The notes under the pieces are model-generated. The model was not told the DNA's origin. It did not search any database and worked only from the letters and a program-made list of their open reading frames with translations. Positions 2,449 to 64,000 of a stretch of DNA of 64,000 bases are shown one piece after another. Position 1 is the stretch's first letter. Each line of letters starts with the position of its first letter. Origin of the DNA: a candidate division FCPU426 bacterium (GTDB lineage: Bacteria; Oederibacteriota; Muellerivitia; Muellerivitales; Muellerivitaceae). A program made the translations under genes and the position numbers. The DNA lies in assembly GCA_963738405.1 (NCBI GenBank), contig CAVTWJ010000022.1, positions 153,717-217,716 of the forward strand, read 5' to 3'.

Positions 2449-2463
2449 TTTACTTCCCCGCGT

Positions 2464-4173: not shown

Positions 4174-4219
4174 TTCGCCTTCTTGGTTCTTTTGATAATT
4201 CTTTCATTCAACCAGTGTA

Positions 4220-5818: not shown

Positions 5819-5883
5819 GATTTCAGTTAACCTCGGGCCATTTTTCGATGAGTATTCGCAAATGAAAACTTTTCAATATCCAC

Positions 5884-7293
5884 TTAAGGTGAGAATTTGC
5901 CCATAAGAATCGTTAGGGGATGACTGTTCCAATAACCATCCATAGCGCCCAACGCGTTGATGCCGAATGATAAAAGACATAAGAAAACAAATGCTCGTCG
6001 GCGCCATTTTCCCCAATTCGGAAAGGATTCCAAACTGTAAAAAATGGGAATCATAAGAAAAAGAATGACCGGCACAATTTCCCGGGGCCCAAAACTCCAG
6101 GTGGCTTCCCAATCATCCATGCAGGCCATCAACAGGTAATAGCAAATAAACCCGCTCCCCCAAACCCAGGCCTCCGCACCCTTTTCCAAAAGGAACTTTT
6201 TCCACGAAAAGAGGACCGGAAACACAAGCGGCAAAAAAGCGGGAATACCGTGGTTAATTGAAAGCCAAAACCCCCAAATTCCCTCGAAATTTTTTCCATA
6301 AACGTGGGTCACAGGGGAATCGAAAGGTTTTACGTTTCCAAAAACAGGACTCTGTGAAAATTGGAAGGGCGAACCAAAAAGTTTATTGTTCAAGTATAAA
6401 TAAAAAGCAAAGGCAATTCCGGGGCCGATGGACATTCGAAACAGGTTCCCCCAATCCTTTCTCGAAATCCATAACGCGTAGAGCGGGAAAATTAAAAGGG
6501 CCAAGGGGGGCTTCATCAGCATACCAATACCCAAGAGAATGCCGGACCAAAATCCCGATTTTTTATCAAATGCCACGAAATAGCCCGCCAAGCCAAAAAG
6601 GACAAGGAAGGGTTCGGTAAAAAGGGTTCGGCCATAGGCCCAGAGGGGCGTTCCTAAAAAGACAATGAAAGTGGATCCATTAATAACCCAAGGGTTTTCC
6701 GTATAACGGCTTATCACTTTGCGGAAAAGAAAGACCGAAAGAAGGACAGCCAGATTAGCTAGGAGAAGGGCAAGGGGTTCCACATAAGGCGTGTTTCGAA
6801 AGGGCCAAAGCACCGAGGCGAGTAAAAAAGGCATTCCATAGGGATGGCAGGAATAAGCACGCAGGGATGAACCATCGATTCCAGGTTTCAGGAGTGGCAC
6901 TAGATGTCCTTCAGTGTCTTTCTTCCAAGTGGAGGGATCTTCGTATACCTGTGTCCAAACAAGCATTTTTCCCGACGTCAAGTAAACCGCGTGTGGGTCT
7001 ATGGGAGATCCCGCATATTTTCTCCCCGCGTCTGTGGAACCTTTCCAAACTTCCTCATAATTATTTTTCAAGTCCCAATCCCCGTCTTTTACTAAGCTGT
7101 TGATCATAATCAAATAATGAGGTTCATCCCCGCCTTTCACCCAGGGCATTCCAAAATGCCACCCATGAAAGAACAGGGGGGGAAAAAGAAGCATAACCAA
7201 ACAGGTAAGAACCATCCTGCCTGAGGAGAAAAAACGAATGACGTTTCGGATAAAACCAGGCATCTGCCATTGATCGGCCGGATTAAAATTCAT
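5884..7293 (-). CDS. Polytopic membrane protein, putative GT-C glycosyltransferase
   Basis: GGDEPHYL loop motif, YGRTLFTEP and WSFGPR; multiple TM segments. Confidence 0.65.
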   Translation of the reverse strand: MNFNPADQWQMPGFIRNVIRFFSSGRMVLTCLVMLLFPPLFFHGWHFGMPWVKGGDEPHYLIMINSLVKDGDWDLKNNYEEVWKGSTDAGRKYAGSPIDPHAVYLTSGKMLVWTQVYEDPSTWKKDTEGHLVPLLKPGIDGSSLRAYSCHPYGMPFLLASVLWPFRNTPYVEPLALLLANLAVLLSVFLFRKVISRYTENPWVINGSTFIVFLGTPLWAYGRTLFTEPFLVLFGLAGYFVAFDKKSGFWSGILLGIGMLMKPPLALLIFPLYALWISRKDWGNLFRMSIGPGIAFAFYLYLNNKLFGSPFQFSQSPVFGNVKPFDSPVTHVYGKNFEGIWGFWLSINHGIPAFLPLVFPVLFSWKKFLLEKGAEAWVWGSGFICYYLLMACMDDWEATWSFGPREIVPVILFLMIPIFYSLESFPNWGKWRRRAFVFLCLLSFGINALGAMDGYWNSHPLTILMGKFSP

Positions 7294-7676: not shown

Positions 7677-8432
7677 ATGCCCCGGCCTCTCAAACAACCC
7701 AAATCCAACAGAAAAAAGAACCCATCTCAAGTTTGGGATGGCCAGCGGGAAACCCTCGACGATCTTTCCGCCGCCATCAACTATAACCGTTGGATTTACG
7801 GGATTTTGCGCCCCTACATCGGGAAGCGAATTCTGGAAATTGGTTGCGGAACGGGCAACATTACCAGCTTTTTAGCCCAGCACGGGCAGGTTCTCGCCAC
7901 CGACCTGCATTCAGGTTATTTAAAGTCAGCCCAGAAGCGCCTCAAGGGCACGAAGGGAATCCGTTTTAAAAAAATCAACCTGGACGATTCCCTCTCATCC
8001 CTGCGCGGATTCAAAGCCGACAGCATCATTTGCGTCAACGTTTTGGAGCACATTTCCAATGACAACGCCGTTCTTAAAGAATGCTATAAACTCCTACCGC
8101 CAGGAGGAAAATTAATGCTTTTTGTTCCCGCGCTTCAATTTTTATTCGGAACCATGGATAAAAGTTATGGCCATCACCGACGGTATGATCGAAGAGAATT
8201 AATTCAAAAAATAGAAAAAGCAGGGTTCAAAGTGGACTATTGCCGTTACCTAAACCTATTGGGCATTTTAGGTTGGTGGCTGAATGGTAAAATTCTAAAG
8301 CGAAAAATCATACCTAAAGGCCAGATGCTGCTCTACGATCGAATCGTCAGCGTTTCACAGCACATCGAAAAATACCTTCCAAAACCTATCGGATTGTCCC
8401 TTTTCTGCGCCGCTACCAAGCTGCCTCAATGA
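7677..8432 (+). CDS. Class I SAM-dependent methyltransferase
   Basis: ILEIGCGTG motif I, NVLEHI, GHHRRY. Confidence 0.9.
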   Translation: MPRPLKQPKSNRKKNPSQVWDGQRETLDDLSAAINYNRWIYGILRPYIGKRILEIGCGTGNITSFLAQHGQVLATDLHSGYLKSAQKRLKGTKGIRFKKINLDDSLSSLRGFKADSIICVNVLEHISNDNAVLKECYKLLPPGGKLMLFVPALQFLFGTMDKSYGHHRRYDRRELIQKIEKAGFKVDYCRYLNLLGILGWWLNGKILKRKIIPKGQMLLYDRIVSVSQHIEKYLPKPIGLSLFCAATKLPQ

Positions 8433-9991
8433 AGGAATACATGATCAAAATACAGGAACGATTCAACCGTTTCCCGTTCGGCCCCGGATGGGTCTCCGTA
8501 TTTTTTGGGGTTCTTTCGTTCGTCCTACGCATTCCCTTTTTATTCCGATACGACCTTCATTTAGGCGGGGATGCCTCCACTTGCTATTTAATGGCATTAA
8601 GGATTTTAGGCGGGGACCGACCTCTTTATTTCTATGGGCAAGATTACCAAGGGGCCGCCGAAGCCTACTTAGCGGCCGGCTTGTTCAAAATTTTCGGACC
8701 TTCCATCCCCCTCGCAGGTGCCGTCAGTCTTTTCGAATGGTCCCTGGCTGTCGGAGCGGGGGTCTACCTGCTTATCAAAGGCGCCTCGAAATACCACGGC
8801 ATTCTCGGCGGCCTTTTCGCAGCGGTGGCGGTTCCCTACACTCTTCATTACGTGGTCGTTCCCTATTGGGGCTATCCGGGAGGGCTTCTCTTGGGAATGC
8901 TGGCGCTCTTGCCGGCCTGTGCCATCCTGGAAAAAGGTCCGTCCCCTTCCCGTTTCATCCTATTGGGTTTCATCACCGGATTCGGGCTATTTGTGGGAAA
9001 GCAATGCGTCCCAGGCCTTGCGGCGGCCTTTCTTACGCTTTTCGTATTGAACTCAGGGCTATGGAATTGGCGCAAGTTGAAAAATCCGGCCTGGCCTCTT
9101 TCAACGATTTTTGGGTTCCTGGCCGGATACTGCCCCGAGATCCTTTATAGGCTGGGACATACCGCCACGAGGGATTTCACCGGTTCCGCCACACCCATCA
9201 TGCTTTGGAACAATTTCCGGAACATGCTGAAATCCATACCGGCCTATTTCGACGCCCAGCCCATATCCCGATCCCCCGAGGCGGTTTACTATTTCATTAG
9301 GGATATGCACGGCCTTATTTATCCCAAGAGCCCGCTTGATATTCTCTATTGCGTTATCGGATTTGGGGTTTTGTATTTCGCCTACAAGGAATTAAAGAAA
9401 TCCTTCCTCGAAAAAAACGTTCCCCTTTTTCTTCTATCCTCCCTTCTTTTCATCAATGTCGCGGCGGTCATTGTCAGCCGACAAACCAACGGCGAATTCT
9501 CGAACGCCAGACGTTACCTTTACTCTTCGGCCATCGTTTTTTCCCTATTCGCCGGATATTTCCTGGCGGATGTCTTGGTTAAAAATTCAAAGAGAATCCC
9601 GATCCTGGCTGCGTTTTTGGGGGTACTTTTTATCGGGCGCGTTTTTATCCATGAATTTTTTCTTATAACATCCTCTGATGAATTGAGGGAAATCCGCTGG
9701 GTGATCGCGGATATGAAATCCCAAGGTTATGACCGGGGTTTAGCGAACTGGGGCACGGCTTATATAGCGGATGCCATCACCAACCAACAAACCATCATCG
9801 CGGGAGATAACGGGGAGCGGATACCTGAATACGCCCAAGAGGTTTCACAAGCAGAAAAAGTTGGCTTGATTGGCCTCAAAACAGAACCCATTGAAAAGAT
9901 AATTCTTTTTAACGGAATTTCTTTTCAACAGGTTGGAGCCCCCCGTGAAAATGAGACTTTCAGATGGATTCCCTATCAGCGAGTAAAATAA
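8429..9991 (+). CDS. Polytopic membrane protein, putative GT-C glycosyltransferase
   Basis: Paralog of 4220..5818 (RIPFLFRYDL, PLYFYGQDYQG, KSIPAYFDA, RRYLYSS); ATGA overlap with the methyltransferase. Confidence 0.6.
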   Translation: MKEYMIKIQERFNRFPFGPGWVSVFFGVLSFVLRIPFLFRYDLHLGGDASTCYLMALRILGGDRPLYFYGQDYQGAAEAYLAAGLFKIFGPSIPLAGAVSLFEWSLAVGAGVYLLIKGASKYHGILGGLFAAVAVPYTLHYVVVPYWGYPGGLLLGMLALLPACAILEKGPSPSRFILLGFITGFGLFVGKQCVPGLAAAFLTLFVLNSGLWNWRKLKNPAWPLSTIFGFLAGYCPEILYRLGHTATRDFTGSATPIMLWNNFRNMLKSIPAYFDAQPISRSPEAVYYFIRDMHGLIYPKSPLDILYCVIGFGVLYFAYKELKKSFLEKNVPLFLLSSLLFINVAAVIVSRQTNGEFSNARRYLYSSAIVFSLFAGYFLADVLVKNSKRIPILAAFLGVLFIGRVFIHEFFLITSSDELREIRWVIADMKSQGYDRGLANWGTAYIADAITNQQTIIAGDNGERIPEYAQEVSQAEKVGLIGLKTEPIEKIILFNGISFQQVGAPRENETFRWIPYQRVK

Positions 9992-9994
9992 ATT

Positions 9995-10744
9995 TTAAGC
10001 GCGGGATTTGGGGCGATAACGCCCAGCCAATTCGTTCCATCGGATCAGGGCCAGGTCCAGAAACATGGTCAGTGAATCTCGGACCACGTGCACCTTGGAC
10101 CCCGGCGCGTCGAACCATTCGACCGGGGCTTCCACCACAGAAAAGCCTAGTTTGCGGGCGATAAAAAGAATTTCCACGTCAAATCCGAAACGTTCAATCG
10201 TCTGAAGTGGAAAAACCGCCTGGGCGGCTCTCCTGCGAAAGGCCTTGAAACCACATTGGGTGTCCTGGATTCCCGGAGTAGCCGCCAATTGAACCAGAAT
10301 ATTGAAGAAACGGCCCATGGCCTCTCGATATAAAGGCTGGTGAACCTTCACCATACTTCGGTCAACCGCCCGGCTTCCTACCACCACATCAAAACCTTTG
10401 GCAAAAAGCGGCCTGAAACGTTCATATTGATTAATAGGGGTGGCGTTGTCCGCGTCCATAAAAAGGACGAAATCACCCCTGGCTTCCAAGGCCCCCCGCT
10501 TCACTGCGGCGCCCTTTCCCTGGTTGGTTTCCTGCTTCAAAACTTTAAATACGCCTTTACCCGCTTTGCGGCTGAAACTTTGTACCATCGTCAGCGTTCC
10601 ATCTGTGGAACCGTCATCCACGATGAGAATCTCAAAAGAATTCTTGGACTTCTTGAGGTAGGCTAAGGATTCGGCCAGGGTCTTTCCCAGGCGTTTTTCC
10701 TCGTTGTAAACCGGTATCACGACCGATAGTTCAAGCCGTTTCAA
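9995..10744 (-). CDS. GT2 polyprenyl/dolichyl-phosphate glycosyltransferase
   Basis: LSVVIPVYNE, VDDGSTD, NQGKGAAV, FMDAD, DTQCGFK, FGFDVE. Start trimmed to a TTG after AAGGA; exact start uncertain. Confidence 0.88.
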   Translation of the reverse strand: MKRLELSVVIPVYNEEKRLGKTLAESLAYLKKSKNSFEILIVDDGSTDGTLTMVQSFSRKAGKGVFKVLKQETNQGKGAAVKRGALEARGDFVLFMDADNATPINQYERFRPLFAKGFDVVVGSRAVDRSMVKVHQPLYREAMGRFFNILVQLAATPGIQDTQCGFKAFRRRAAQAVFPLQTIERFGFDVEILFIARKLGFSVVEAPVEWFDAPGSKVHVVRDSLTMFLDLALIRWNELAGRYRPKSRA

Positions 10745-11624: not shown

Positions 11625-12932
11625 TTAACCGAAATCAAGCACTTCGCCCCGGCCCATGCCGTAATAGGCGAAACCCTCCTCGGAAAGCTCCTCATTACTG
11701 TACATGTTGCGGCCATCGATAACGACCGCCTGCCGCATCAATCCCTTGAGTTTCTTGAAATCCACCTGTTTGAACTCGTTCCACTCAGTCAAAATTAAAA
11801 CCGCGTCCGCGCCCTGGCAGGCCTCATAAGGATTTTTAGCGAACTTAACCCTTTTAAAGAGACTGTGAGCCTTCCCCATAGCTACCGGATCATAGACCTT
11901 TAGCCGGGCCTTGGCCTTGAGAAGGGCGGGGATGATTGTGAGGGACGGCGCCTCACGCAAATCGTCCGTATTGGGTTTGAAGGAAAGGCCCCACACCGCT
12001 AGAGTCTTGCCCTTTAGGGGTCCCAGGACCCGCCGAATCTTCTGAAGAAACTTAATTCGTTGGTTTTGATTCACATCGATGACCTGGGGCAGGATGCGGA
12101 AAGCCGCCTTGCTTTTCTGCCCTATCTTCACCAAAGCTGAAACATCCTTTGGGAAGCAGCTTCCGCCGAAACCCAACCCCGCGTTCAAAAACTGACCACC
12201 GATTCTAGGGTCATAAGACATTCCCTTGGAAACCTGCCCTATATCCGCACCCAGGGCATCGCAAAGATTGGCAATTTCATTGATAAATGAGATTTTCGTG
12301 GCCAGAAAAGCGTTCGAGGCGTATTTGATCATTTCGGCGCTTTTTAAATCGGTAATGAGAATAGGACAGTTGAGGGATTTGTAAATTTCGGCCACCTTTT
12401 GAGCCGCCGAACGGCGTGTAGCGCCGATGACCACCCGGTCTGGGCGAAGCAGGTCTGTGACCGCCGATCCCTCCCGCAGGAACTCGGGGTTGGAGACCAC
12501 GTCGAAAGTCACGTCTTTGGGGCCGTTCTTGATGATGATTTGGGTCACCACGTCCCCCATGCCGATGGGAACGGTGCTTTTATTGATGATGATCTTGTAC
12601 CGGTTAATGGCCTTGGCGATACCCTTGGCCACAGCCTTAACGTTGGAAATATCCGCTTCCCCATCCTTGCCTGGAGGGGTGCTAACGGCGATGAAGATGA
12701 AATCGGAACCCTGGACCGCTTTTGTCAGGTCAGTCGTGAAAGTAAGGCGTTTGCCCATGTTGCGGTGAACAACCTCTTCTAAGCCCGGCTCAAATATCGG
12801 AACGACTCCCTTTTTCAGACCCTGAATTTTTTTTCGGTCCACATCCACGCAAATGACCTGGTTTCCCAAGTCCGCGAAACAGGACCCGGTCACCAAACCT
12901 ACGTAACCCGTTCCCACTACGGCGATACGCAT
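11625..12932 (-). CDS. ugd: UDP-glucose/GDP-mannose 6-dehydrogenase
   Basis: GTGYVG, SNPEFLREG, GFGGSCFPKD, FKPNTDDLRE. Confidence 0.93.
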   Translation of the reverse strand: MRIAVVGTGYVGLVTGSCFADLGNQVICVDVDRKKIQGLKKGVVPIFEPGLEEVVHRNMGKRLTFTTDLTKAVQGSDFIFIAVSTPPGKDGEADISNVKAVAKGIAKAINRYKIIINKSTVPIGMGDVVTQIIIKNGPKDVTFDVVSNPEFLREGSAVTDLLRPDRVVIGATRRSAAQKVAEIYKSLNCPILITDLKSAEMIKYASNAFLATKISFINEIANLCDALGADIGQVSKGMSYDPRIGGQFLNAGLGFGGSCFPKDVSALVKIGQKSKAAFRILPQVIDVNQNQRIKFLQKIRRVLGPLKGKTLAVWGLSFKPNTDDLREAPSLTIIPALLKAKARLKVYDPVAMGKAHSLFKRVKFAKNPYEACQGADAVLILTEWNEFKQVDFKKLKGLMRQAVVIDGRNMYSNEELSEEGFAYYGMGRGEVLDFG

Positions 12933-12975
12933 AAAAACTCCTTGGCCTCATCAGGCCTAAAAATTCGCCTTAGAA

Positions 12976-13015
12976 ACTCAAAAACCGGGGCGGACACCCG
13001 CCCCGGTTTTTGAGT
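12976..13015. terminator. Perfect 18-bp inverted repeat, probable intrinsic terminator (either direction)
   Basis: ACTCAAAAACCGGGGCGG-acac-CCGCCCCGGTTTTTGAGT just downstream of the ABC ATPase gene. Confidence 0.8.
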
Positions 13016-13034
13016 AAGTCTTAACTCTTGTAAC

Positions 13035-14141
13035 TCAAGTAGTAAGGCACTTCTCCGTTTCCCTATCGAAGATGTGCGATTTTTGCATGTTGAAGACCAA
13101 CTCAATGTCCTGATTGATCTCAATCTGGTCATGGCTTGAAACACGAGCAATAAAGGGACTTTTTCCCGTGGTCAGGTAGAGGTAAGCCTCAGCGCCGAGA
13201 GGCTCGATAATTTCAACCGTGGCGCTGATGGTATTGTCGGGAGAAGCGTTGGCGGCATCCATCTTGTCATGGATGTCCTCCGGCCTTACCCCCAAGATCA
13301 CATCCCTGCCCACGTGGCCTTCCACTTGGGGTGCGAACGAGTCAGGCAGTTTGATTTCGAAGTTTTCCTCGTTGAAATAGATGCCCGTGCGTTTCTTATT
13401 AAGGGTTCCTTCCATGAAATTCATCGCGGGGGTCCCGATAAAGCCGGCCACGAACTTATTAACGGGCTTCTCGTAGAGGGTCAGGGGATCGGCGATCTGC
13501 TGGACGAAACCGTCTTTCATCACCGCAATCCGGTCGCCCATAGTCATGGCTTCCAACTGGTCGTGGGTCACGTAAATCATGGTGGCTTGAAGGCGGGTAT
13601 GGAGTTTGGAAATCTCGGCTCGCATCTGAACCCGAAGCTTGGCGTCCAGATTGGACAGGGGCTCGTCGAAGAGGAACACCTTGGGTTTGCGCACGATAGC
13701 GCGGCCCACGGCCACGCGCTGGCGCTGGCCGCCGGAGAGTTCCTTAGGACGGCGGTTTAAAAGCTCCTGGATGCCAAGGATATTGGCTGCCTCGTAAACC
13801 CTTTGCTTGATTTCTTCTTTCGGATATTTCCGCAGCTTCAACCCGAAGGCCATGTTGTCAAACACGGTCATGTGGGGATAAAGGGCGTAGTTTTGGAACA
13901 CCATGGCGATATCACGGTCCTTGGGGGGAACGTCGTTCACCAACACATCGTCGATGCGGATCTCGCCGCCCGAGAGTTCTTCCAACCCGGCCACCATGCG
14001 AAGCGTGGTCGATTTGCCGCAGCCCGAAGGCCCGACCAGGATTAAAAATTCCTTGTCCGCTATTTCAATATTGACGTTATTAACCGCCACGACATTGTTG
14101 CCGTAAACCTTGTTGACGTTTTTAAGGACGACCTTCGCCAT
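13035..14141 (-). CDS. Sugar ABC transporter ATP-binding protein (MalK/MsmX/UgpC family)
   Basis: GPSGCGKS, LSGGQRQR, FLFDEPLSNLDAKLR, C-terminal TOBE region. Confidence 0.95.
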   Translation of the reverse strand: MAKVVLKNVNKVYGNNVVAVNNVNIEIADKEFLILVGPSGCGKSTTLRMVAGLEELSGGEIRIDDVLVNDVPPKDRDIAMVFQNYALYPHMTVFDNMAFGLKLRKYPKEEIKQRVYEAANILGIQELLNRRPKELSGGQRQRVAVGRAIVRKPKVFLFDEPLSNLDAKLRVQMRAEISKLHTRLQATMIYVTHDQLEAMTMGDRIAVMKDGFVQQIADPLTLYEKPVNKFVAGFIGTPAMNFMEGTLNKKRTGIYFNEENFEIKLPDSFAPQVEGHVGRDVILGVRPEDIHDKMDAANASPDNTISATVEIIEPLGAEAYLYLTTGKSPFIARVSSHDQIEINQDIELVFNMQKSHIFDRETEKCLTT

Positions 14142-14367
14142 GAAATCCTCCGAAGATTGGGACCGAGACGTCTCGAGTCCCCTGACTTTCCAGGGGTCGC
14201 GCGATCCCGCCTGTTTTTAATCACAAAAAGGGGATCCGTCGAACGGGAACGTATCAGAACCAGCATGGGTTTCGGCCCTAAAGTTCCTCCGAAAACCCCG
14301 AAAAACCTGTTGTATTTAAGCATTCACCCCAGGGGCTGTCAACGAACAAACCAGCTAACAGGGTCCA

Positions 14368-14395
14368 TTGTCAGTCATATGAAAGGCTTTATAAT
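14368..14395 (+). promoter_or_regulatory. Putative sigma70 promoter of the O-antigen ligase-like gene
   Basis: TTGTCA-16 nt-TATAAT, 8 nt before ATG 14404. Confidence 0.55.
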
Positions 14396-14403
14396 CCAAC
14401 CCC

Positions 14404-15579
14404 ATGGAAATCGCGGACTCCTCTCGAAAATTCTTCTTTTTTTCTCTTCTTGTCTTCTTTGCGGTCTCCACCGCCTCCATCGCCCTTCAAAATCTCATTT
14501 GGCTTCCTGTTCTATATCTGGATTGGATCTATCTTAAAAACCATCCCAAGACTCCATGGCGTCCAGAACCCTTCGTCATTTGGACCCTCTTGTGGGTCTT
14601 TAGTTTTTATTTGGGCACCCTTTTGGGGGTCAATCCCCTTCATAGCCTGGAAACCGTCAACCGCTACCTCACCCTCCTGCTAGCCCTTTTTGTGGGGTCC
14701 ATGGGCATGGGCGTGGTCGAGATTCGCAAGCTTTTGAACGCCTTTACTTGGGGAGCAGTTTTTTGCGCCGTTTACGGCATCGGCAAGCACCTGTTTCTCC
14801 ACCAGGACCGTATCGATTCTTTCTCCGGAGACAAGATGGTCTTCGGCGGCCTTTTGATGACGGCCCTCCTCATCCAAGCGGGCGCCTTGATGAAACGGCC
14901 CAAAGATTTCTTAACCTGGTTCGGGGCCAGCCTCAACGGCTGGGCGCTTCTTTTAACCGAGACCCGGGGAGCTTGGGTCGGGCTTTTAGCGGGCTTCCTC
15001 ATGCTGGGGTGGCGATTCAACCGCCGGTGGCTTTTGGCGGGACTTTTCATTGGGGTGGTTGGATATTTTGTCCTACCCGCGAAATATCAGGACAGACTGA
15101 AAAGCATCACCCAGTTGGACATCAGCTATACCGAAAACCACGAAATCGGCGACAGCAGCCAAACCCGTGTACTGATCTGGGTCACCGGAATCCGGATCAT
15201 CGAGAATTATCCCTTGGGGATAGGACAGGGAAACATCGGGGAAGTTTTTCCAAAATACAAGGTTCACGCCCTCGAGGAAGCCACCGAGCCACACTTGCAT
15301 AACAACTGCCTCCAATTGGCGGCGCAAAACGGCTGGCTGGGCCTGGCGCTGTATCTGGGATGGATTGGCTGTTATTTCTGGATGGCTTTTAAGTATCAGG
15401 GATCGAGACCCTTGGCGGAAGAGCTCAATTGGACCCTGGCCTGCTGTTTCTTGGGAGCCCTCGCTTGGGGGTTAACTGAATTCACTTTTTCTCAGCAGTT
15501 CATGTACCTGCAATATTCCCTACTGGGATTGCATTGGGGCTTGTTGAAAAAAGAAAAGGAAACAATCCCTATAACTTGA
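14404..15579 (+). CDS. O-antigen ligase family (Wzy_C) membrane protein
   Basis: LLTETRGAW, R-x-x-IW...PLGIGQGN and HLHNN motifs; multiple TM segments. Confidence 0.88.
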   Translation: MEIADSSRKFFFFSLLVFFAVSTASIALQNLIWLPVLYLDWIYLKNHPKTPWRPEPFVIWTLLWVFSFYLGTLLGVNPLHSLETVNRYLTLLLALFVGSMGMGVVEIRKLLNAFTWGAVFCAVYGIGKHLFLHQDRIDSFSGDKMVFGGLLMTALLIQAGALMKRPKDFLTWFGASLNGWALLLTETRGAWVGLLAGFLMLGWRFNRRWLLAGLFIGVVGYFVLPAKYQDRLKSITQLDISYTENHEIGDSSQTRVLIWVTGIRIIENYPLGIGQGNIGEVFPKYKVHALEEATEPHLHNNCLQLAAQNGWLGLALYLGWIGCYFWMAFKYQGSRPLAEELNWTLACCFLGALAWGLTEFTFSQQFMYLQYSLLGLHWGLLKKEKETIPIT

Positions 15580-17026
15580 CCAACATCCATTCGTCATTCT
15601 GGAGAAATAGGTCCAAATGATGGGTTTGAACAAACCTTTCATTTTCTTTTTTTAAATCTTTTTCGAGCATCCAATAACCGTGGGTTTTCAATACTTCCTC
15701 GGGCTTTGCGCAATCCACCGGATTCAACCCGCAAACCACTTCCGCCATAAACCGATCCGCTTGGCACCAAACTTCTTTTGAAATGACGGTATGGGGCGGA
15801 ACCTTCAACTGGGCCAGTTCCCCGAGAAGTTGCTGTGAGGGTTTAGGATCCGGAAAGTTGATAGTTTTCCATATTTCCCTCTCTGACCGCGCAAGGGCCA
15901 CCAACAGCAAAAATAATAAAAGCGTCTTCCCTGCCGTCCTGAAAGAAGAATCCCTGAAAACACGGAAACTGACCCATCCAATCAAAACCGCCAAAGGGGG
16001 GTAAATCGGATCCATATACCAGCCCAATTTTGTGCGGGCGATGGAAAACATCACGAAGGGCACCAGAACCGCCATGGAAGTGAGCGTCAAAACCTTGTTT
16101 TTGAAATCCGCCTTGAACCCTGCCACCGCCAAAAACAGGAAGAGCGCCAGAACGAAATACAAACTCAAAAACAGATCGTTTTGACCAATGTAGGAAAGAT
16201 AATAATCCGTCGGACCCACATGCCCCTCCACCTCCTTCGTCGTATGGGAGATCAAGTCGTAGGTGAAGCAGTCCATCAGAAATTGATGGCCACCGGGATA
16301 GGATCCGCGCCAAACCATCCATCCCCCGACGGGAACAATCGCGCAAAGGACGAAACCCAAGTAACGCCCTAAGGAAATTTTTTTATAAAGGCCCGTGAGC
16401 CATAGGTAAATAAAGAGAATTGCCCCCATTTGAAGCGCATGGAAGCTGTAAACCAGAAATCCCAATCCCGCGCAAAGTCCCGCCAAGGGCATGGCAGCAA
16501 CCCATTTCTCGGCGTTATAAAGAAATATCAGGAATAAGAAGCAAAAGAGGGTGAAAAAAGAGGAATAGTCCCCCATGCGGGCGCCATGGGTAAAGAGAAA
16601 AGGGGAAGTGAGGACGAGGGTTAACCCTGCCAGCAGGGCCGGAGCCTTGCCCAAAACCTTTGGGAGAAGCAAAAGTAAAAGGGCCACCATGGCAAGGCAG
16701 GAAAGGGCCGAATAAAACCGCATCCCCAAAACGCTGAATCCAAACAGCTTGTATCCGAGAAGGATCCCCCAAGAGCCCAAAAAGGGCTTTTTATTCCAAT
16801 CGTCAATGGCATGGGCATAGGTGTTGATGCCGTAATCGTGATTTTGGGCCATCTCATAAGCGTTGGTGGCATACCGGGCCTCGTCCCAATCCCAAACCGG
16901 AAGTTCCCCCAGCTTATAGAAAAAGTTATAGGCGGCCAAAAGCAAAACAAGGCCCGCCAGAAGAGGATAAAAACGCTCCAGCGTCTCGCCAAAGGATCGG
17001 GAAAAAAATGCTTGTTTGTTGTTCAT
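15569..17026 (-). CDS. ArnT/PMT (GT83/GT39)-like glycosyltransferase
   Basis: WDWDEARYATNAYEM, KKPFLGSW, multiple TM segments. Confidence 0.85.
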   Translation of the reverse strand: MNNKQAFFSRSFGETLERFYPLLAGLVLLLAAYNFFYKLGELPVWDWDEARYATNAYEMAQNHDYGINTYAHAIDDWNKKPFLGSWGILLGYKLFGFSVLGMRFYSALSCLAMVALLLLLLPKVLGKAPALLAGLTLVLTSPFLFTHGARMGDYSSFFTLFCFLFLIFLYNAEKWVAAMPLAGLCAGLGFLVYSFHALQMGAILFIYLWLTGLYKKISLGRYLGFVLCAIVPVGGWMVWRGSYPGGHQFLMDCFTYDLISHTTKEVEGHVGPTDYYLSYIGQNDLFLSLYFVLALFLFLAVAGFKADFKNKVLTLTSMAVLVPFVMFSIARTKLGWYMDPIYPPLAVLIGWVSFRVFRDSSFRTAGKTLLLFLLLVALARSEREIWKTINFPDPKPSQQLLGELAQLKVPPHTVISKEVWCQADRFMAEVVCGLNPVDCAKPEEVLKTHGYWMLEKDLKKENERFVQTHHLDLFLQNDEWMLVKL

Positions 17027-58104: not shown

Positions 58105-58214
58105 ATTTCACCACCAAGACACCAAGACACCAAGTTAAGTCTTGAAAAAAATATAGACGTTTTAAGAGTTTTCAAATCCTGGCCTTGTCGTTCTTGGTGT
58201 CTTGGTGGTGAAAT
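58105..58214. repeat. 110-bp hairpin with tandem-8-mer inverted arms between alr and mlaE
   Basis: ATTTCACCACCAAGACACCAAGACACCAAG ... CTTGTCGTTCTTGGTGTCTTGGTGGTGAAAT; the outer 23 bp are perfectly complementary. Confidence 0.9.
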
Positions 58215-58223
58215 CTTGGGTTT

Positions 58224-59351
58224 TTAAGTATAAACGCGGGTGACCCTTTCACCCACAGCGCATAAAAGTTCATAAGAAATAGTACCCGCAAGGGACGCCT
58301 GTTCTTCCACGCCGATTTGGGCCTTTCCCTGGCGGCCAAAGAAAACCGCCTCATCCCCAACCTTCACGTTCTTCACTTTAGAAACATCCAGCATCACCAT
58401 ATCCATGCAGACCGTCCCGATTTGAGGAACTCTTTTTCCACCCACCAGGAAATCGCACTTGTTGGAAAGGTTTCGGTGTACCCCGTCGGCGTAGCCTAAA
58501 GCCACTGTGGCGACGGAAACAGGTTTTTTGGCGGTGTAGGTACGCCCGTAACTGACCGATTGGCCCTTTTCGATCTTTTTTAGATGAATAATCTTCGCCT
58601 TTACCTGCATCACCGGTATCAGCGCTACCCTATTTTTGAAGGCGGGATTGGGATAGATGCCATAGAGGGCGATGCCGGGTCGAACCCAGGTGCCGGCGGA
58701 TTGAGGAAAATAAGTGAGGAGTGCCGCACTATTGGCCACATGGGTCATGGGGAAAAACCGTTCTTTTTGCCGAAGGGTTTCGAGGGCCTGGTTGAATTGG
58801 GTAATCTGTTTCCAAGCGTATTTGGGGTCCGTCCAATCGGCGGTGGCGAGATGGCTATAGACCGCTTCCACCCTCAACCCCTCAACCTTTCGAATGGCCT
58901 GAATTTCAGCCAAGACACTCTTCAACTTAACGCCTAACCTTCCCATACCCGTGTCGATTTTGACGTGAACGGGCACCGGCCCGCTTTTCATTTTCTTGGC
59001 GGCCTGGGCCAATTCCATCGCACCCCCGAGGGAACTGACCTGGGGAGTCAGGGCGTTATCTAACAGGTCCGGGATTTCTTCTTTTAAGGTGGGGGTCAAA
59101 ACCAAGATGGGGACATCAACGCCAAAGGCCCGCAATTCGGCCCCTTCCTGCACAGTGGCCACCGCCAGCATCTTGGCCCCCGCTTGGAGAAGCGCCTGGG
59201 AAACCGGAACCGCCCCATGACCATAGGCATTGGCCTTAATCACCGGGAGAATTTGGGAACCTTGGGCGATCTTGGCCAAAGCCTTGAAGTTATTTTTCAG
59301 GGCCTTCATGGAAATTTCCGCCCAGGCGGGGGTTTTGGATTGGGTTGGCAT
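58224..59351 (-). CDS. alr: Alanine racemase
   Basis: VIKANAYGHG, KIDTGMGRLG, VRPGIALYG, GYADG, CMD, TISYE. Start set at MPTQSK. Confidence 0.96.
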   Translation of the reverse strand: MPTQSKTPAWAEISMKALKNNFKALAKIAQGSQILPVIKANAYGHGAVPVSQALLQAGAKMLAVATVQEGAELRAFGVDVPILVLTPTLKEEIPDLLDNALTPQVSSLGGAMELAQAAKKMKSGPVPVHVKIDTGMGRLGVKLKSVLAEIQAIRKVEGLRVEAVYSHLATADWTDPKYAWKQITQFNQALETLRQKERFFPMTHVANSAALLTYFPQSAGTWVRPGIALYGIYPNPAFKNRVALIPVMQVKAKIIHLKKIEKGQSVSYGRTYTAKKPVSVATVALGYADGVHRNLSNKCDFLVGGKRVPQIGTVCMDMVMLDVSKVKNVKVGDEAVFFGRQGKAQIGVEEQASLAGTISYELLCAVGERVTRVYT

Positions 59352-59373
59352 GGGGTTACCCTTTAGGCGATTT

Positions 59374-59940
59374 TTATTTATCCGAAACCTTTGAGGCGGA
59401 TTCGAAAGTCGTGTATTGGTTGCGGAAGACCACATTGATGTTTTCCGTGGGGCCGTTACGCTGTTTGGCCAAAACCAGCTCGTAATTGAACATAGGCTTT
59501 TCACCGTCCTGGCCTGCCGATTCCCGGTGGATGAATATAACCACGTCAGCGTCTTGTTCGATGGCGCCCGATTCACGAAGGTCGGACAAGACCGGTCTTT
59601 TCTCTTCCGCGCCCTTTTGGGGTCGGGACAACTGGGACAAAACCACCACCGGGATATCCAAATCTTTGGCCAGTGCCTTCAACTGGCGGGAAATGTAGGC
59701 GATTTCCTGTTCCCGATTGTCGGTTCGGATTCCCGCTTGGATGAGCTGAAGGTAGTCGATCAGCAAAATCCCGATACCATATTCGCGTTTCAAACGCCGG
59801 GCCTTGGCCTTAAGGTCCAACACGGTCATGGAAGAGGTATCGTCGATGTACAGCTTAGCCTCGTAAAATTGCCCTGTCACGCCGACCAAGCGGGCCCTTT
59901 CCTGGTCACTCAGGTAGCCGGACCTGGCTTTTTTCAGGTC
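59374..59940 (-). CDS. dnaB: Replicative DNA helicase, C-terminal part only (truncated at the junction)
   Basis: LYIDD, IDYLQL, LSQLSR, SDLRESGAIEQDAD, AKQRNGPT; Walker A and N-terminal domain absent. Confidence 0.9.
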   Translation of the reverse strand, partial: DLKKARSGYLSDQERARLVGVTGQFYEAKLYIDDTSSMTVLDLKAKARRLKREYGIGILLIDYLQLIQAGIRTDNREQEIAYISRQLKALAKDLDIPVVVLSQLSRPQKGAEEKRPVLSDLRESGAIEQDADVVIFIHRESAGQDGEKPMFNYELVLAKQRNGPTENINVVFRNQYTTFESASKVSDK

Positions 59941-60312
59941 GCCGGAACAGGCGACTTGTCCGGGGGCTCCGGACGAGAATGATCGCACGACGCGGAGGCG
60001 TCCGGGGTTGCGGGCAGATCTGAAACGCGCCCCGGATGTCCCGCTCGGGTAATTAGGGGCCAGCAGGCCAGACCAGGCCTGAGTGCTGGATTGCGTGCCC
60101 CCGCCGCTAAGGGCTCGGGTGCCCGGTCAGGAACGATTCGGCGAGGGAAGCGAAGGGCTTTTCTTTCGTGATCATGGAATTGTTGCCGACGATCACGCGG
60201 CCGGCAGGGGCGGCGCGGGGTGCGGGCAGCAGGGCGAAACCGGTACGCTACCTGTGACGGCCTGCCTAGTGTGCGGGCGCGCGAGGGCGCGCCACCGACG
60301 CTGGCAGATTGT

Positions 60313-60383
60313 GCGGGCGTAGCTCAATGGTAGAGCCCCAGCCTTCCAAGCTGGTCATGCGGGTTCGATTCCCGTCGCCCGCT
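60313..60383 (+). tRNA. tRNA-Gly (TCC), CCA not encoded
   Basis: GCGGGCGTAGCTCAATGGTAGAGC...CTTCCAA...GGTTCGATTCCC.TCGCCCGCT. Confidence 0.93.
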
Positions 60384-60402
60384 CTCATCGTTTCAGCCCA
60401 GG

Positions 60403-60693
60403 TCAGGGTTTATTATTCGCTAGCTCTGTCGGGTTACTCTCGACGTCTGCTTGGGGCGGCGTGCCCGTTGCGTGCCCGATGGCTTCGGGTCCGTGCCCGT
60501 TCGCTTGGTGCTCTTTCTTCGCCTCGGCGAAGAGCCTGCCCATGCCTGCCGCTATCTTCTGGTCGCGCTCGCGGGTGGCGTGCAGGTATATGAGTGCGGC
60601 GCGCGGGCTTGAGTGGCCCATCCGCTCCATCAGCTCCTTGAGGCTGGCGCCCTGCGCGGCCGCCATCGTGTTCCCCGTGTGCCGCAGGTCGTG
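60403..60693 (-). pseudogene. C-terminal fragment of a tyrosine integrase (actinomycete integrative element type)
   Basis: In-frame HDLRHTGNTMAAAQGASLKELMERMGHSSPRAALIYLHA; the sequence upstream of HDLRH is replaced by a repeat cluster; convergent with tRNA-Gly. Confidence 0.85.
60460..60501 (+). repeat. Three CGTGCCCG(T/A)T direct repeats, candidate integrase arm-type sites
   Basis: Copies at 60460, 60471 and 60492. Confidence 0.55.
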
Positions 60694-60694
60694 A

Positions 60695-60801
60695 TTATGC
60701 CGACGTCGGCATAACCATGATTAAGCCGACCTTCGCGTTATGCCGACCTGCGGGCGGATGTCCTGCTCAGCGGGGTGGGGCATCGGATGATGTCGGCATA
60801 A
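60695..60801. repeat. Five TTA(T/A)GCCGAC motifs including a perfect 20-bp palindrome
   Basis: TTATGCCGACGTCGGCATAA 60695-60714; TTAAGCCGAC 60721; TTATGCCGAC 60738; GTCGGCATAA 60792. Confidence 0.9.
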
Positions 60802-60854
60802 TGAAGTGACTTCGAGCCATCATGTCCTTCTCGTCAGGGAGGGGAGGAGTCAAG

Positions 60855-62075
60855 ATGGCCGGAGCAGCGAGCAGGATCAGCAGGGTGCGTGTGACGGGGC
60901 CGTTGGCCCCGTTCGCGGAGGAGTATCGCCGCGAGTTGAGGGAGCGCGGCTATACGGAGCGGTCGGCGGTCAACGAGCTGCGGCAGGTGGCCCGGTTCAG
61001 CGGCTGGCTCCAGGCGAGCCGGCTGAGCGTCTCGGAGCTGGGCGCCGGCCGGGTCGAGGAGTTCCTCGGCTGGCAGCGTGCCGTCGGGCGGCACCGGTCC
61101 CAGTGGTCGCGGCCGGGGCTGGTGTGCCTGCTCGACGTGCTGCGTGAGCTGTGGGTGCTGGCGGCTGGGCAGCCAGCTCAGGCGGACTCGCCGGCGGAGG
61201 TGCTGCTGGCTGGGTTCGGGCGCTACCTGGCAGCTGAGCGAGGCCTGGCGGCGGGCACCGTCCGGGGCTATGTGAGCCATGCCCGCCGGTTCCTGGACGG
61301 GCTGCCCGCCGCTGCGGGCCTGGCCGGCCTGAGCGCCAAAGACGTGACCGAGGCGGTGCTGCGGAGGTCAGCGGCGGTGTCGGTCAGCGCCACGCAGTTC
61401 TTCGTGGCCGGGCTGCGGTCGTTTCTCCGCTTCTGCTTCATCGAGGGCCAGGTGCCCGTCGATCTGTCGCAGGCAGCGCTGCCGGTGACCGGCCGGCGGC
61501 GCTCGCCGCTGCCCCGGGGGATCGCGAAGGCCGACGCCCGGGCGTTGCTGGGTGGCTGTGACCGGCGCTCGGCGCCGGGGCGGCGCGACTACGCGATGCT
61601 CGTCACGCTGCTCCGGCTGGGATTGCGCGCCGGGGAGGTGGCGCGGCTGAGGCTGGATGATATCGACTGGCGGGCGGGGGAACTGGCCGTGCGGGGCAAG
61701 GGCGCCCGCGAGGACCGGCTGCCCCTGCCCGCAGAGGTGGGCCAGGCGATCGCCTGCTACCTGCGGCGGGGACGGCCGGCCAGCGGCCGGCGGGAGGTGT
61801 TCTTGCAGGCCCGGGCCCCGTTCGGCGCCATAGCGCCGGGCACCGTGTCGTCCACGGTGCGCCGGGCGTGCCGGCGGGCAGGGGTGGCGGAGGTGGGGGC
61901 ACACCGCCTGCGCCACACGGTGGCCTGCGAAATGGTGGCCGCCGGGGTCCCGCTGACCGACATCGCCCAGGTGCTGCGCCACCACAGCCTGCAGACCACG
62001 GCACTTTACGGGCGAGTGGACCTGGACCGGCTGCGGGCCCTGGCCGCGCCGTGGCCGGGAAGCGTGCAGCGATGA
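60855..62075 (+). CDS. Tyrosine recombinase, RIT first gene (A-type)
   Basis: RRDYAML..LGLRAGEV, RGKG, AHRLRH, LRH...TTALY; GGAGGAG RBS. Confidence 0.88.
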   Translation: MAGAASRISRVRVTGPLAPFAEEYRRELRERGYTERSAVNELRQVARFSGWLQASRLSVSELGAGRVEEFLGWQRAVGRHRSQWSRPGLVCLLDVLRELWVLAAGQPAQADSPAEVLLAGFGRYLAAERGLAAGTVRGYVSHARRFLDGLPAAAGLAGLSAKDVTEAVLRRSAAVSVSATQFFVAGLRSFLRFCFIEGQVPVDLSQAALPVTGRRRSPLPRGIAKADARALLGGCDRRSAPGRRDYAMLVTLLRLGLRAGEVARLRLDDIDWRAGELAVRGKGAREDRLPLPAEVGQAIACYLRRGRPASGRREVFLQARAPFGAIAPGTVSSTVRRACRRAGVAEVGAHRLRHTVACEMVAAGVPLTDIAQVLRHHSLQTTALYGRVDLDRLRALAAPWPGSVQR

Positions 62076-62803
62076 GCACGCTGAACAGCCACGCGGAGGA
62101 CTACCTGCGGCTGCGCCGGGCGCTCGGGTTCAAGCTGGAGCGCGCCGGGCAGCTGCTGCCCCAGCTGACGGCCTACCTGGAGGCCGCCGGCGCCGGCACG
62201 GTAACCAGCGACCTGGCGATCGCCTGGGCCCGGCTGCCCGATGCCACGCCTAACCACTGGGCGCAGCGCCTGGCCATCGCGCGCGGCTTCGCCCGCTACC
62301 TGCAGACGATCGACCCGGCGGCCGAAGTGCCGCCGCCCGGGGTGTTCCCCGCCCGGCGGCACCGGCCCGCTCCCTACCTGTTCAGCCAGCGCGATATCTG
62401 CCGGATCCTCCAGGCGGCCCGCGCGCTGCGCCCGCCGCTGCGGGCCGCCACCTGCGAGGCGATCTTCGGGCTGATCGCGGCGTCCGGCATGCGCATCGGC
62501 GAGGCCACCGGGCTGGACCGCGGCGACGTCGACCTCGGCACCGGCGTCATCACCATCCGTGAGGCCAAGTTCGGCCGCTCCCGGCTGGTGCCACTGCACC
62601 CGACCGTCACCGCGGCGCTGGGCCGCTACGCCGCCGAGCGCGACCGGCTCTGTCCCCGGCCCCGCTCGGCAGCGTTCTTCTTGTCCGGAGCCGGCACCCG
62701 CCTCGATCGCAGCGGCGCCGGAGCCACGTTCCGCACGATCACCGCGGGCCTCGGCATCCGCACCGCCACCGTCCGGCCCCGGGTCCATGACCTGAGACAT
62801 TAG
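62072..62803 (+). pseudogene. Tyrosine recombinase, RIT second gene (B-type), truncated right after HDLRH
   Basis: YLRLRRALGFKL, SGMRIGEA, KFGRSRLVPLH, PRVHDLRH then TAG; lacks the LGH/catalytic-Tyr box. Confidence 0.85.
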
Positions 62804-62896
62804 GCGGACGGCTGGGTTATGTGCCCTGCCGTGGTGTTTCCGCTGCTAGGGGCGGCGGAGCTCGTCTTGCAGTCCGCATAATGCTGCTCGCCAGCG

Positions 62897-63940
62897 TCAT
62901 CGCCCCAGCGAGTCGAGCCAGCCGACCAGGGACGAGTCGAGGGTCCAGTCCGGCAAGGCGTCTGGGGTGAGTGGTTCGTAGGCATTTTCAATCGCTCTGC
63001 GTTTGGTCTCGGCGTCTGCACGGGCGTAGATCTCGGTGGTGGACACATCGGCATGGCCGAGCAGGTCGCGGATGTAGATCAGGTTGACGCCGGCCTGGAC
63101 CAGGTGCATGGCCCGGCTCCGCCGGAGCGTATGAGGCGTGACCTGCAGGCAGGGAGCCCAGCCGGGGTCGCGCGCCCGGACGGCCCGCACGTGGCGGGCC
63201 AGCAGCTTGGCCACCCCGGACCGGGTCAATCTGGAGTGGTTTGGCCCGGCGAACAGCGGGTCGGCGTCGGCGCCGACGCCGGGATGCCGGTCGCGGTGGT
63301 CGAGGTAGTCGTCGACGAGCCGGGCGGTCGGCTCCATCACGGGCACGTACCGGATCTTGGAACCCTTCCCGCGGATCACCACAGTCATCGGGCTGCCGCG
63401 GCGGATATCAGCGACGTCGAGGTCGCAAAGCTCCTGGACGCGGGCGGCGGTGTCGTAGGCCAGGGCGAGCAGGACGGTGTCCCTGACAGCGCGTGCGCTG
63501 GCCGTGCCAGGTTCGGCGAGCAGCGTTTTGACCTCGTCGCCGGTCAGGTGGTCTAGCTGCGGGGCCGGGGTCTTTTTCTGCCGGATCGCGAGGACCTGGG
63601 TGACCTGGTCGAGATGGCCGGGCTGCTCGATGGCGGTGTAACGGCAAAACGACTTGATCACCGCCAGGCGCTGGTTGCGGGTGGCGGCCGAGCAGTTCCG
63701 CTCGGCCTCCAGCCAGTCCAGGAACCGCAGGGCCCGGGGCCGGTCGATGTCGGCCAGGCGCAGCTTCTCCGGCGGTATGCGCTCTACGTCCCTGAACCAG
63801 GTGAGCAGCAGTTTCATCGCGTCCCGGTAGGACGAAATGGTTTTTGGCGAGGCTGCGCGCTCCCCGGCCAGGTGGTCGGTGAAGAATTTCGACAGCCAGC
63901 GCCCGGCAAGATCCGGCGGCGGCGCGGGCCGCGGGTTCAC
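62897..63940 (-). CDS. Tyrosine recombinase, RIT third gene (C-type)
   Basis: SPKTISSYRDA, TRNQRLA, YDTAARVQE, GKGSK.R.VP, TPHTLRR, IRDLLGH..VSTTEIYA. Confidence 0.88.
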   Translation of the reverse strand: MNPRPAPPPDLAGRWLSKFFTDHLAGERAASPKTISSYRDAMKLLLTWFRDVERIPPEKLRLADIDRPRALRFLDWLEAERNCSAATRNQRLAVIKSFCRYTAIEQPGHLDQVTQVLAIRQKKTPAPQLDHLTGDEVKTLLAEPGTASARAVRDTVLLALAYDTAARVQELCDLDVADIRRGSPMTVVIRGKGSKIRYVPVMEPTARLVDDYLDHRDRHPGVGADADPLFAGPNHSRLTRSGVAKLLARHVRAVRARDPGWAPCLQVTPHTLRRSRAMHLVQAGVNLIYIRDLLGHADVSTTEIYARADAETKRRAIENAYEPLTPDALPDWTLDSSLVGWLDSLGR

Positions 63941-64000
63941 CGCTCGTCCCCGGGCAGCGGGGGGATGACGTAGCCGAACCGGACCTGGGCAGGTAGCCGG
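63937..64000 (-). CDS. C-terminal tail of the upstream gene (probable B-type recombinase), partial
   Basis: ...AQVRFGYVIPPLPGDER* with a GTGA stop/start overlap into 62897..63940. Confidence 0.5.
   Translation of the reverse strand, partial: RLPAQVRFGYVIPPLPGDER

Follow-up and report, generated by a model that had tools for sequence, protein, structure and literature searches.

RIT elements are common in bacterial genomes and carry a trio of tyrosine recombinase genes, ritA, ritB and ritC. According to the accessible parts of the published descriptions, overlaps of 4–8 bp between consecutive rit genes serve as a criterion for a RIT and plasmid pHG1 is rich in these elements (PMC3414803), and two sequential core-binding domains are the hallmark of RitA (PMC8138268). 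RITs lying inside a Tn6049-type transposase gene and inside radC of Tn6054 were taken as hints of mobility in the same portions of text (PMC3414803; PMC8138268). The corresponding excerpts state that no convincing RIT binding sites were found (PMC3414803), give target specificity and movement as not tested (PMC10214605), and report raised mobilome coverage but no circle (PMC5737581). A literature search whose coverage stopped short of Ricker et al. 2013 (Plasmid 70:226) and of supplements found nothing on how RITs choose their targets. Here we describe two RIT elements at the end of a window of 64,000 nucleotides, the terminal 64 kb of contig C22 (CAVTWJ010000022.1) in a 3.18-Mb assembly of 23 contigs with about 52% guanine plus cytosine (GC). 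It is very probable that they are nested site-specific insertions, element 1 (lineage alpha) having split an integrase gene beside a tRNA-Gly gene and element 2 (lineage beta) having then split the ritB gene of element 1, each within the codons of box II (H-x-L-R-H). An attachment site and a target rule can now be proposed for one RIT clade. The RITs described from Cupriavidus metallidurans CH34 and C. necator pHG1 (Van Houdt 2009/2012, Ricker 2013) have the same ritA-ritB-ritC order, 4-base overlaps and double core-binding RitA, and are likewise about 3.4 kb long with terminal inverted repeats and a palindrome. In the alpha clade, by comparison, a 5-base core and eight 10-base sites are defined, and there is a single target, box II, that of other RITs included.

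Tn554, with TnpA, TnpB and TnpC, is likewise a small transposon that combines several tyrosine recombinases with strong site specificity; its primary site lies in radC, and it is not known to have terminal inverted repeats. It differs from the RITs in having two recombinases, not three, and in using one chromosomal site rather than a protein motif of many genes. Its insertion occurs in either orientation and is influenced by TnpC, as described in the available portion of PMC3414803. The GInt/SE elements (three integrase-like genes plus a fourth) are also site-specific, and the accessible passages describe their recombinase-like genes as jointly required for attL x attR recombination, with flank sequence carried in the circle (PMC5385486, PMC10214605). 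In contrast to the RITs, they are large cargo islands with four core genes and chromosomal targets in Gammaproteobacteria/Pseudomonas, without nesting in recombinase genes.

RIT elements at the box II codons of tyrosine recombinase genes

The window holds ritA and 243 ritB codons of element 1, and 20 ritB codons and the whole ritC of element 2 (Table 1). Consecutive genes overlap by ATGA in element 1 and by GTGA in element 2. The RitA of element 1 has two core-binding domains and a catalytic domain, PF13495 at residues 33–85 (22.8 bits against a cut-off of 27), PF02899 at 131–205 (36.5 bits) and PF00589 at 237–400. It is 74–75% identical to the RitA of loci L003 and L006, and a tblastn search with it matched C. 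necator H16 pHG1 (38% identity, 94% of the query covered, E 1e-65). NCBIfam contains no RIT-specific model, and the best matches there were XerC/XerD, below their cut-offs. RitA relatives at 60–75% identity belong to complete A-B-C trios. A RIT is expected to be about 3.5 kb long, with terminal inverted repeats and a palindrome at the ends; such an end was found on the left in the window and in complete relatives, whose ends are mirror images about 3.34 kb apart (e.g., L006 9873–13209). As to element 2, its nested relatives in L050, L095, L096, L097, L098 and L100 have box II in three long open reading frames (ORFs) each, and the nested element of L101 has box II in two ORFs by scan and RitC by tblastn. 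The RitC of element 2 is only 34–45% identical to the RitCs of element 1 relatives, and 82% (nested L050/L083), 81% (copies in genome G003) and 70–71% (70% in L070) identical to a separate set. These comparisons support the assignment of both elements to the RIT type, in two different lineages, with element 2 inverted; the impression of an earlier note on this DNA that the two look like independent events is in agreement with this separation.

That note had also placed the cut in the integrase gene just before HDLRH and the stop of ritB at HDLRH where an inverted element 2 begins, and both positions proved correct to the base. The integrase fragment (ORF 60406–60693, minus strand, stop 60403–60405) begins HDLRHTGNTMAAAQG and aligns with the last 42 positions of Pfam Phage_integrase (130–171/172, E 4.2e-05, 23.8 bits, cut-off 27.1). 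It ends 19 bases from the tRNA-Gly gene, and its 5' half and attachment (att) sites lie outside the window. Homologues of this integrase are interrupted at identical codons in L030 and L026. At the second junction, ritB of element 1 ends ...RPRVHDLRH followed by TAG, a stop that comes from the end of element 2; full-length ritB relatives read on as SFAV.TLI past HDLRH. The first base of the TTAGGCGGAC site is the T of the last His codon of ritB, and the same ritC-side end was found in L050, L070 and L073. The 20-base palindrome adjoining HDLRH is part of element 1 and not of its target, and the same module was found at 23 related ends; in element 1 it is the ritA end that carries it.

Table 1. 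Coordinates of the features discussed, numbered from the first base of the window.
Feature	Position	Strand	Evidence or detail
High-GC piece (65–77%) on 52% GC genome	59942..64000	.	GC profiles; join at 59941/59942 likely assembly chimera
tRNA-Gly (anticodon TCC)	60313..60384	+	ARAGORN
Tyrosine integrase 3' fragment, 96 amino acids and stop, starting at HDLRH; target of element 1	60403..60693	-	Pfam; break to element 1 at 60693/60694
Integrase box II codons CAC GAC CTG CGG CAC	60679..60693	-	GTGCCGCAGGTCGTG on plus strand
Target-side core copy CACGA	60689..60693	-	Sequence and register
20-base palindrome TTATGCCGAC/GTCGGCATAA, element 1 end module	60695..60714	.	Repeat search; arms 60695–60704 and 60705–60714; single bases 60694 and 60715 flank
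Inner core copy CATGA	60716..60720	+	Sequence
Outer 10-base site pair, element 1 ritA-side end	60721..60747	+	TTAAGCCGAC (60721–60730), 7-base spacer, TTATGCCGAC (60738–60747)
Inner inverted site GTCGGCATAA	60792..60801	+	Repeat search
ritA of element 1, 417 amino acids	60822..62075	+	Two SAM-like core-binding domains and catalytic domain
ritB of element 1, truncated at HDLRH after residue 243	62072..62803	+	Phage_integrase 6–134/172; ATGA overlap with ritA 62072–62075; HDLRH and TAG 62786–62803
ritB box II codons CAT GAC CTG AGA CAT	62786..62800	+	Target core AGACA 62795–62799
Element 2 ritC-side end, read inward	62800..62826	+	TTAGGCGGAC (from 62800), 7-base spacer, TTATGTGCCC
Element 2 inner inverted site GTCCGCATAA	62872..62881	+	Sequence
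ritC of element 2, 347 amino acids; box II HTLRR	62897..63940	-	Sequence comparison
ritB of element 2, last 20 codons (RLPAQVRFGYVIPPLPGDER and stop)	63937..64000	-	Cut by contig end; compare L050 inner ritB tail; GTGA overlap with ritC 63937–63940

Recurrence was examined in loci selected from 368 confirmed RitA relatives, one genome per species, by RitA similarity only and with the flanks ignored; the best 80 (39–75% identity) were kept with up to 10 kb of flank. Ends were found as pairs of 10-base sites 7 bases apart, which gave 147 ends, 8 of them at contig edges. Alpha denotes the clade of the window RitA, with 42 ends of the CAYGA core type including close variants. Box II stood in exact register at 41 of these 42 ends. 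At 23 ends, H-x-[LIVM]-[RAK]-[HRK] followed in register behind the palindrome and led into a recombinase C-terminus, a motif that occurred in 75 of 200,000 random 15-mers of the same DNA; at 18 ends, the ...H-[DEV] of the target, mostly as R-[FLIV]-H-D, ran straight into the element.

Pfam, run on 131 stop-free flank ORFs, located the break within the Phage_integrase profile. Eleven alpha 3' flanks start at position 130 of 172 (window, L006, L007, L008, L009, L010, L013, L015 twice, L021 and L031), and five 5' flanks end at 131 (L006, L007, L009, L013 and L045), the remaining 5' flanks ending at 124–130 or, in L022, at 113. In L006, L007, L009 and L013, both target halves surround one complete element, the 5' half ending at 131 and the 3' half starting at 130. 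The gene halves predicted to resume past the elements were thereby located in relatives. The targets are diverse, since clustering at 80% amino-acid identity resolved 24 3' flanks into 21 clusters and kept all of 19 5' flanks apart, in 19 clusters; they include arm-type integrases, the family of the window integrase (L030, L026) and the RitB of other RITs (L003, L014 and L019 by pattern, L016 by eye). The same point is occupied in at least 21 different tyrosine recombinase genes, in keeping with the proposal that box II codons are the attachment site. In a quick tree, the 23 RitA rows that target box II formed one clade (SH-aLRT 99), with a sister that targets DDE_3 and next rows that target rve. 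L020 and L022, from one metagenome-assembled genome (MAG), carry identical RitA in two different integrase genes, which points to recent movement. An integrase gene that starts or ends at HxLRH beside a 20-base palindrome therefore marks a RIT insertion and not a random pseudogene.

Some relatives have additional features. In L014 and L015, two target 3' halves come from different genes, as expected after recombination between two inverted copies. L045 has about 1.5 kb of extra DNA between the left end and ritA (8368–10001), and L010 about 4.6 kb between ritB and ritC (11956–16748); cargo or nested elements may be present in both.

Elements of the beta lineage have the architecture of alpha with the core CGNCA instead, and join their targets 9 bases further downstream, after L-R-H (Phage_integrase 134). 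All six beta 5' flanks end at this position (window, L050, L053, L070, L073 and L027), and [HY]-x-L-R-H runs directly into the element in L050, L070, L073, L053, L027 and L071. The codons before the junction vary by locus (GAC CTG AGA, GAC CTA CGC, ACG CTG CGG) and therefore belong to the targets. Past the nested beta element, ritB resumes in L050, L095 and L096. Loci found through RitA are possibly biased to RIT neighbourhoods, and five genomes were therefore searched with the RitC of element 2. One of them, G003, gave 44 RitC matches, 7 of them of beta type. Each of the seven copies interrupts another RIT; both orientations occur, and the palindrome is again on the 3' side of the target. Two copies are in ritB after H-D-[LV]-R-H (L095, L096) and five in ritC after V-T-P-H-T-L-R-H (L097–L101). 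G003 is a 9.7-Mb Solirubrobacterales MAG, the genome of L070; its RitC matches come from several RIT families (e.g., L095–L121), many of them nested, and several of its RIT copies are 100% identical.

G003 also provides empty sites. Three uninterrupted copies of the interrupted ritC were present with identical flanks, reading CTGCGGCA/CACCAAC (CTG CGG CA/C ACC AAC), and the filled copy reads CTGCGGCA, element, inverted core, palindrome, CGACA and CACCAAC. Filled and empty sites differ by the element and one 5-base core copy; with identical flanks on both, the insertion is exact and recent. A previous query for an uninterrupted copy, made with the RIT of L068, had matched a different RIT and was discarded; it was the second query that found the empty sites.

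Architecture of the ends and a proposed route of insertion

With S standing for TTATGCCGAC and S' for its complement, one order of sites describes the ends. On the target 5' side, the 5' half ending in CAY GA is followed by S, 7 bases, S, about 45 bases, S' and the rit genes. On the target 3' side come S, about 55 bases, S', 7 bases, S' and TCRTG, and then 1 base, S S' and 1 base; behind this palindrome, the target 3' half resumes at CAY GAY CTN CGN CAY. Both orientations of the ritA-ritB-ritC genes occur: the palindrome adjoins the ritA end in 12 cases and the ritC end in another 12, and it invariably stands beside the target 3' half. Its arms co-vary between elements (TTGTGCCGAC, TTATCCCGAT, TTAGGCCGAT and TTGCGCCGAC, each with its exact complement), indicating selection for the palindrome. 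By its register, the putative alpha core CAYGA spans the first His codon of box II and runs two bases into the Asp codon, and the putative beta core CGNCA spans the Arg codon and runs two bases into the last His codon. The idea that the whole motif serves as the attachment site can be kept as to its location in box II but not as to its extent, since the crossover region corresponds to a 5-base core and the palindrome belongs to the element.

A plausible route would begin with excision of the element as a circle. Its joined ends would present two adjacent full sites, S'-TCRTGx-S and S'-xCAYGA-S, with 6-base spacers opposed. Either full site could then recombine with box II codons, the tyrosine-recombinase strand exchange presumably taking place within the core; the choice of site would give both orientations, and the unused site would stay as the palindrome module on the target 3' side. 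Any assignment of particular Rit proteins to particular sites would be conjectural. In the window, the integrase gene next to tRNA-Gly would have been split by element 1 at CAYGA, and the ritB of element 1 would later have been split by element 2 at CGNCA. In-situ inversion between the mirror ends gives the same picture as the circle route, and the two are not separable. With a defined core, a set of binding sites, a predicted circle junction and natural filled and empty sites, integration by the alpha clade is now testable on a plasmid.

Other RIT lineages, possible motives and box II of the rit genes

More distant RIT lineages lie at single positions of other gene families. One is found at position 256/379 of Transposase_mut, directly after Q-R-C-x-x-H in Mutator/IS256-type transposase genes, with 5' flanks in L043, L048, L062, L063, L065, L078 and L081 and 3' flanks starting at 256 in L041 and L064. 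Another splits rve genes between D and N of Y-V-D-N-G (L018, L034, L082 and L027; two 5' flanks end at 73/102 and one 3' flank starts at 73), and a further one splits IstB_IS21 between D and E of the Walker B motif L-D-E (L036, L042, the outer element of L050, and L054; 5' flanks end at 160/238 and 3' flanks start at 159). DDE_3 is the target in L029 and L075. RadC is the target in L076, a Gemmobacter isolate, which echoes the published RIT6 in radC and parallels the radC site of Tn554. No Pfam match was obtained for the flanks of L038, L040, L046 and L060, of L044 and L047, of L035, or of the outer elements of L051, L068, L069 and L070; such flanks end ...LLLLGV, ...ILVVVAD and ...ELKQPQQLRI.

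Tentatively, and with slightly less than even confidence, RITs may be regarded as a radiating guild of hyperparasitic site-specific transposons, each lineage aimed at one conserved motif of the enzymes of other mobile elements. If so, all lineages would keep the same 10-base sites and end architecture, and their targets would be box II, the C-x2-H region of Mutator/IS256, the D-N-G of rve and the Walker B of IstB; beta would have specialised in parasitising other RITs. Inteins and group I/II introns home into conserved catalytic motifs too, and they splice out, so that the host gene stays functional. RITs likewise occupy the most conserved coding string, which is widespread and slow to mutate, but break the gene. 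The RITs described here appear to persist by disrupting recombinase genes, whether those of phages, of islands or of their own relatives, at the one DNA string that such genes can hardly change.

Whether breaking the gene is what is selected is a separate question. The target gene is inactivated because the break lies upstream of the catalytic Tyr, and the claim that insertion disables the resident element is right to this extent, as a consequence and not as a selected function; any benefit to the element is something that we infer. The same targeting could equally have another motive, to which we give an even chance, namely that box II offers an abundant, non-essential and horizontally travelling safe harbour and that the knockout is a side effect. 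The varied nature of the targets (arm-type phage and island integrases, RitB, RitC), the use of IstB helper ATPase, RadC and transposase genes by other RIT lineages, the decay by frameshifts or stops already seen in several targets (L003, L004, L032) and the multi-copy state of beta inside RITs that are themselves multi-copy are all in favour of a harbour. Nevertheless, a broken integrase strands the host element and limits hitch-hiking unless it is mobilised in trans, and the present data do not separate the two motives.

The box II codons of the rit genes themselves were surveyed in 77 RitB matches. Of 28 alpha-clade ritB genes, 22 have one of the rare codons AGA and AGG for the box II Arg, uninterrupted genes among them (e.g., L006), and the suggestion that the AGA of the window ritB came from incoming element 2 was rejected on this ground. 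Protection by AGA/AGG against alpha insertion was rejected as well, as one of these codons is present in 4 of 23 alpha targets. Ten of the 28 alpha ritB genes read HQLRH or HHLRH, which destroys the core, and all eight beta ritC genes read H-[TV]-[LI]-R-R, which destroys the beta core; beta ritB keeps it. The altered box II may reflect self-immunity or mere ancestry. Under the guild hypothesis, such changes that remove the core would amount to immunity against the element's own kind.

The window junctions and their genomic context

Several points weigh against site-specific nested insertion at box II as set out above. In the parts available of PMC10214605, PMC3414803 and PMC5737581, no circle, excision or transposition is demonstrated for any RIT. 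All alpha relatives come from MAGs, and the plasmid collection contained no RitA at 60% identity or more. One of the 42 alpha ends (L010+) fits neither pattern; L012+ has H-E only, without Pfam support, and the flanks of L011 have the motif but no Pfam match. Both ends of L014 (9863, 13194) and both of L015 (9898, 13241) have the palindrome together with the 3' half of a target, for which a secondary rearrangement is needed. The contig ends inside element 2, so the far junctions of both elements lie outside the window, and a proven misjoin lies 750 bases away, by which local misassembly among RIT copies could also have produced the window copy. Contigs of four soil metagenome runs, which are only partial holders of the sequence (best share 0.24), were aligned to 59500–64000; none of those listed bridges 60693/4 or 62800/1, and pieces stop at both.

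The 10-base sites and the spacer are nearly alike in lineages with different targets, and the 5-base core alone therefore cannot explain specificity. One idea was that the D-L-R codons of the target are imitated by the 7-base spacer or by the bases that follow the second site, and that this sets the specificity; it was dropped, as lineages with other targets have the same spacers. At the only site with a known empty form, the right core is CGACA and the target is CGGCA, a difference at the wobble base, which simple exchange across an identical overlap does not predict. The unequal cores suggest that one copy travels with the element or that a mismatched overlap is tolerated. Tn916 and CTnDOT are conjugative transposons that have a single integrase and are not strict in their choice of target. 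They tolerate a short non-identical overlap as their coupling sequence, a flank copy travelling with the element; the RIT resembles them in that one flank copy seems to travel with it.

It is improbable that both window junctions are assembly artefacts, in which short reads of RIT copies and integrases were joined at HDLRH microhomology. Such an origin would fit the misjoin at 59941/2 on the same contig, the shortness of the piece, its termination in a repeat, the lack of any continuation of it among the assembled contigs, and the soil contigs that stop at 60693 and 62800 (X3 records 18 and 21). However, true nested repeats also make contigs stop at repeat boundaries. The full canonical structure is present at 60689–60747 (core, palindrome, core, paired sites) and its counterpart at 62795–62826 (core, paired sites), and the same structure occurs with both target halves in contigs that are several hundred kb long as well as in two chromosome-titled records (L013, L015). 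L050, L095 and L096 moreover show the beta-in-ritB junction again, at different target codons. Highly improbable is an origin without any targeting, by homologous or illegitimate recombination that shuffles gene halves beside RIT ends at box II, the longest conserved DNA string common to these genes: recombination between copies does occur (L014, L015), but the only difference between a filled site and the empty sites of the same genome is the element with a 5-base core copy, the flanks being identical, four loci have both halves of one gene with Pfam positions 131 and 130 abutting, and sister lineages sit at single positions of unrelated families, which recombinase homology cannot explain.

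Nested site-specific insertion is preferred over both, and the nest as a whole is attached to the wrong genome. The 1799 bases at window 58143–59941 are duplicated without a difference, in reverse complement, at the start of contig C8, which then diverges. DnaB is intact in C8, with 465 amino acids (TIGR00665, 502 bits, profile 2–433), and the window dnaB is cut, with only profile positions 251–433 before the high-GC DNA. A soil-metagenome contig (X2 record 9) matches from 59941 rightward and is unlike the window leftward. From the GC jump, the C8 duplicate, the cut dnaB and the soil contig, the terminal 4.06 kb is best read as a misjoined piece that is entirely foreign to the genome with which it was binned, and RIT nests can be seen to break assemblies. 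Its closest relatives are Actinomycetota MAGs, and the source was probably a high-GC actinobacterial genome. A search across the assembly found no second RIT piece. Near the start of contig C9 of the 52% GC assembly (G000), positions 2001–7000 have 67–70% GC and are possibly a second foreign piece.

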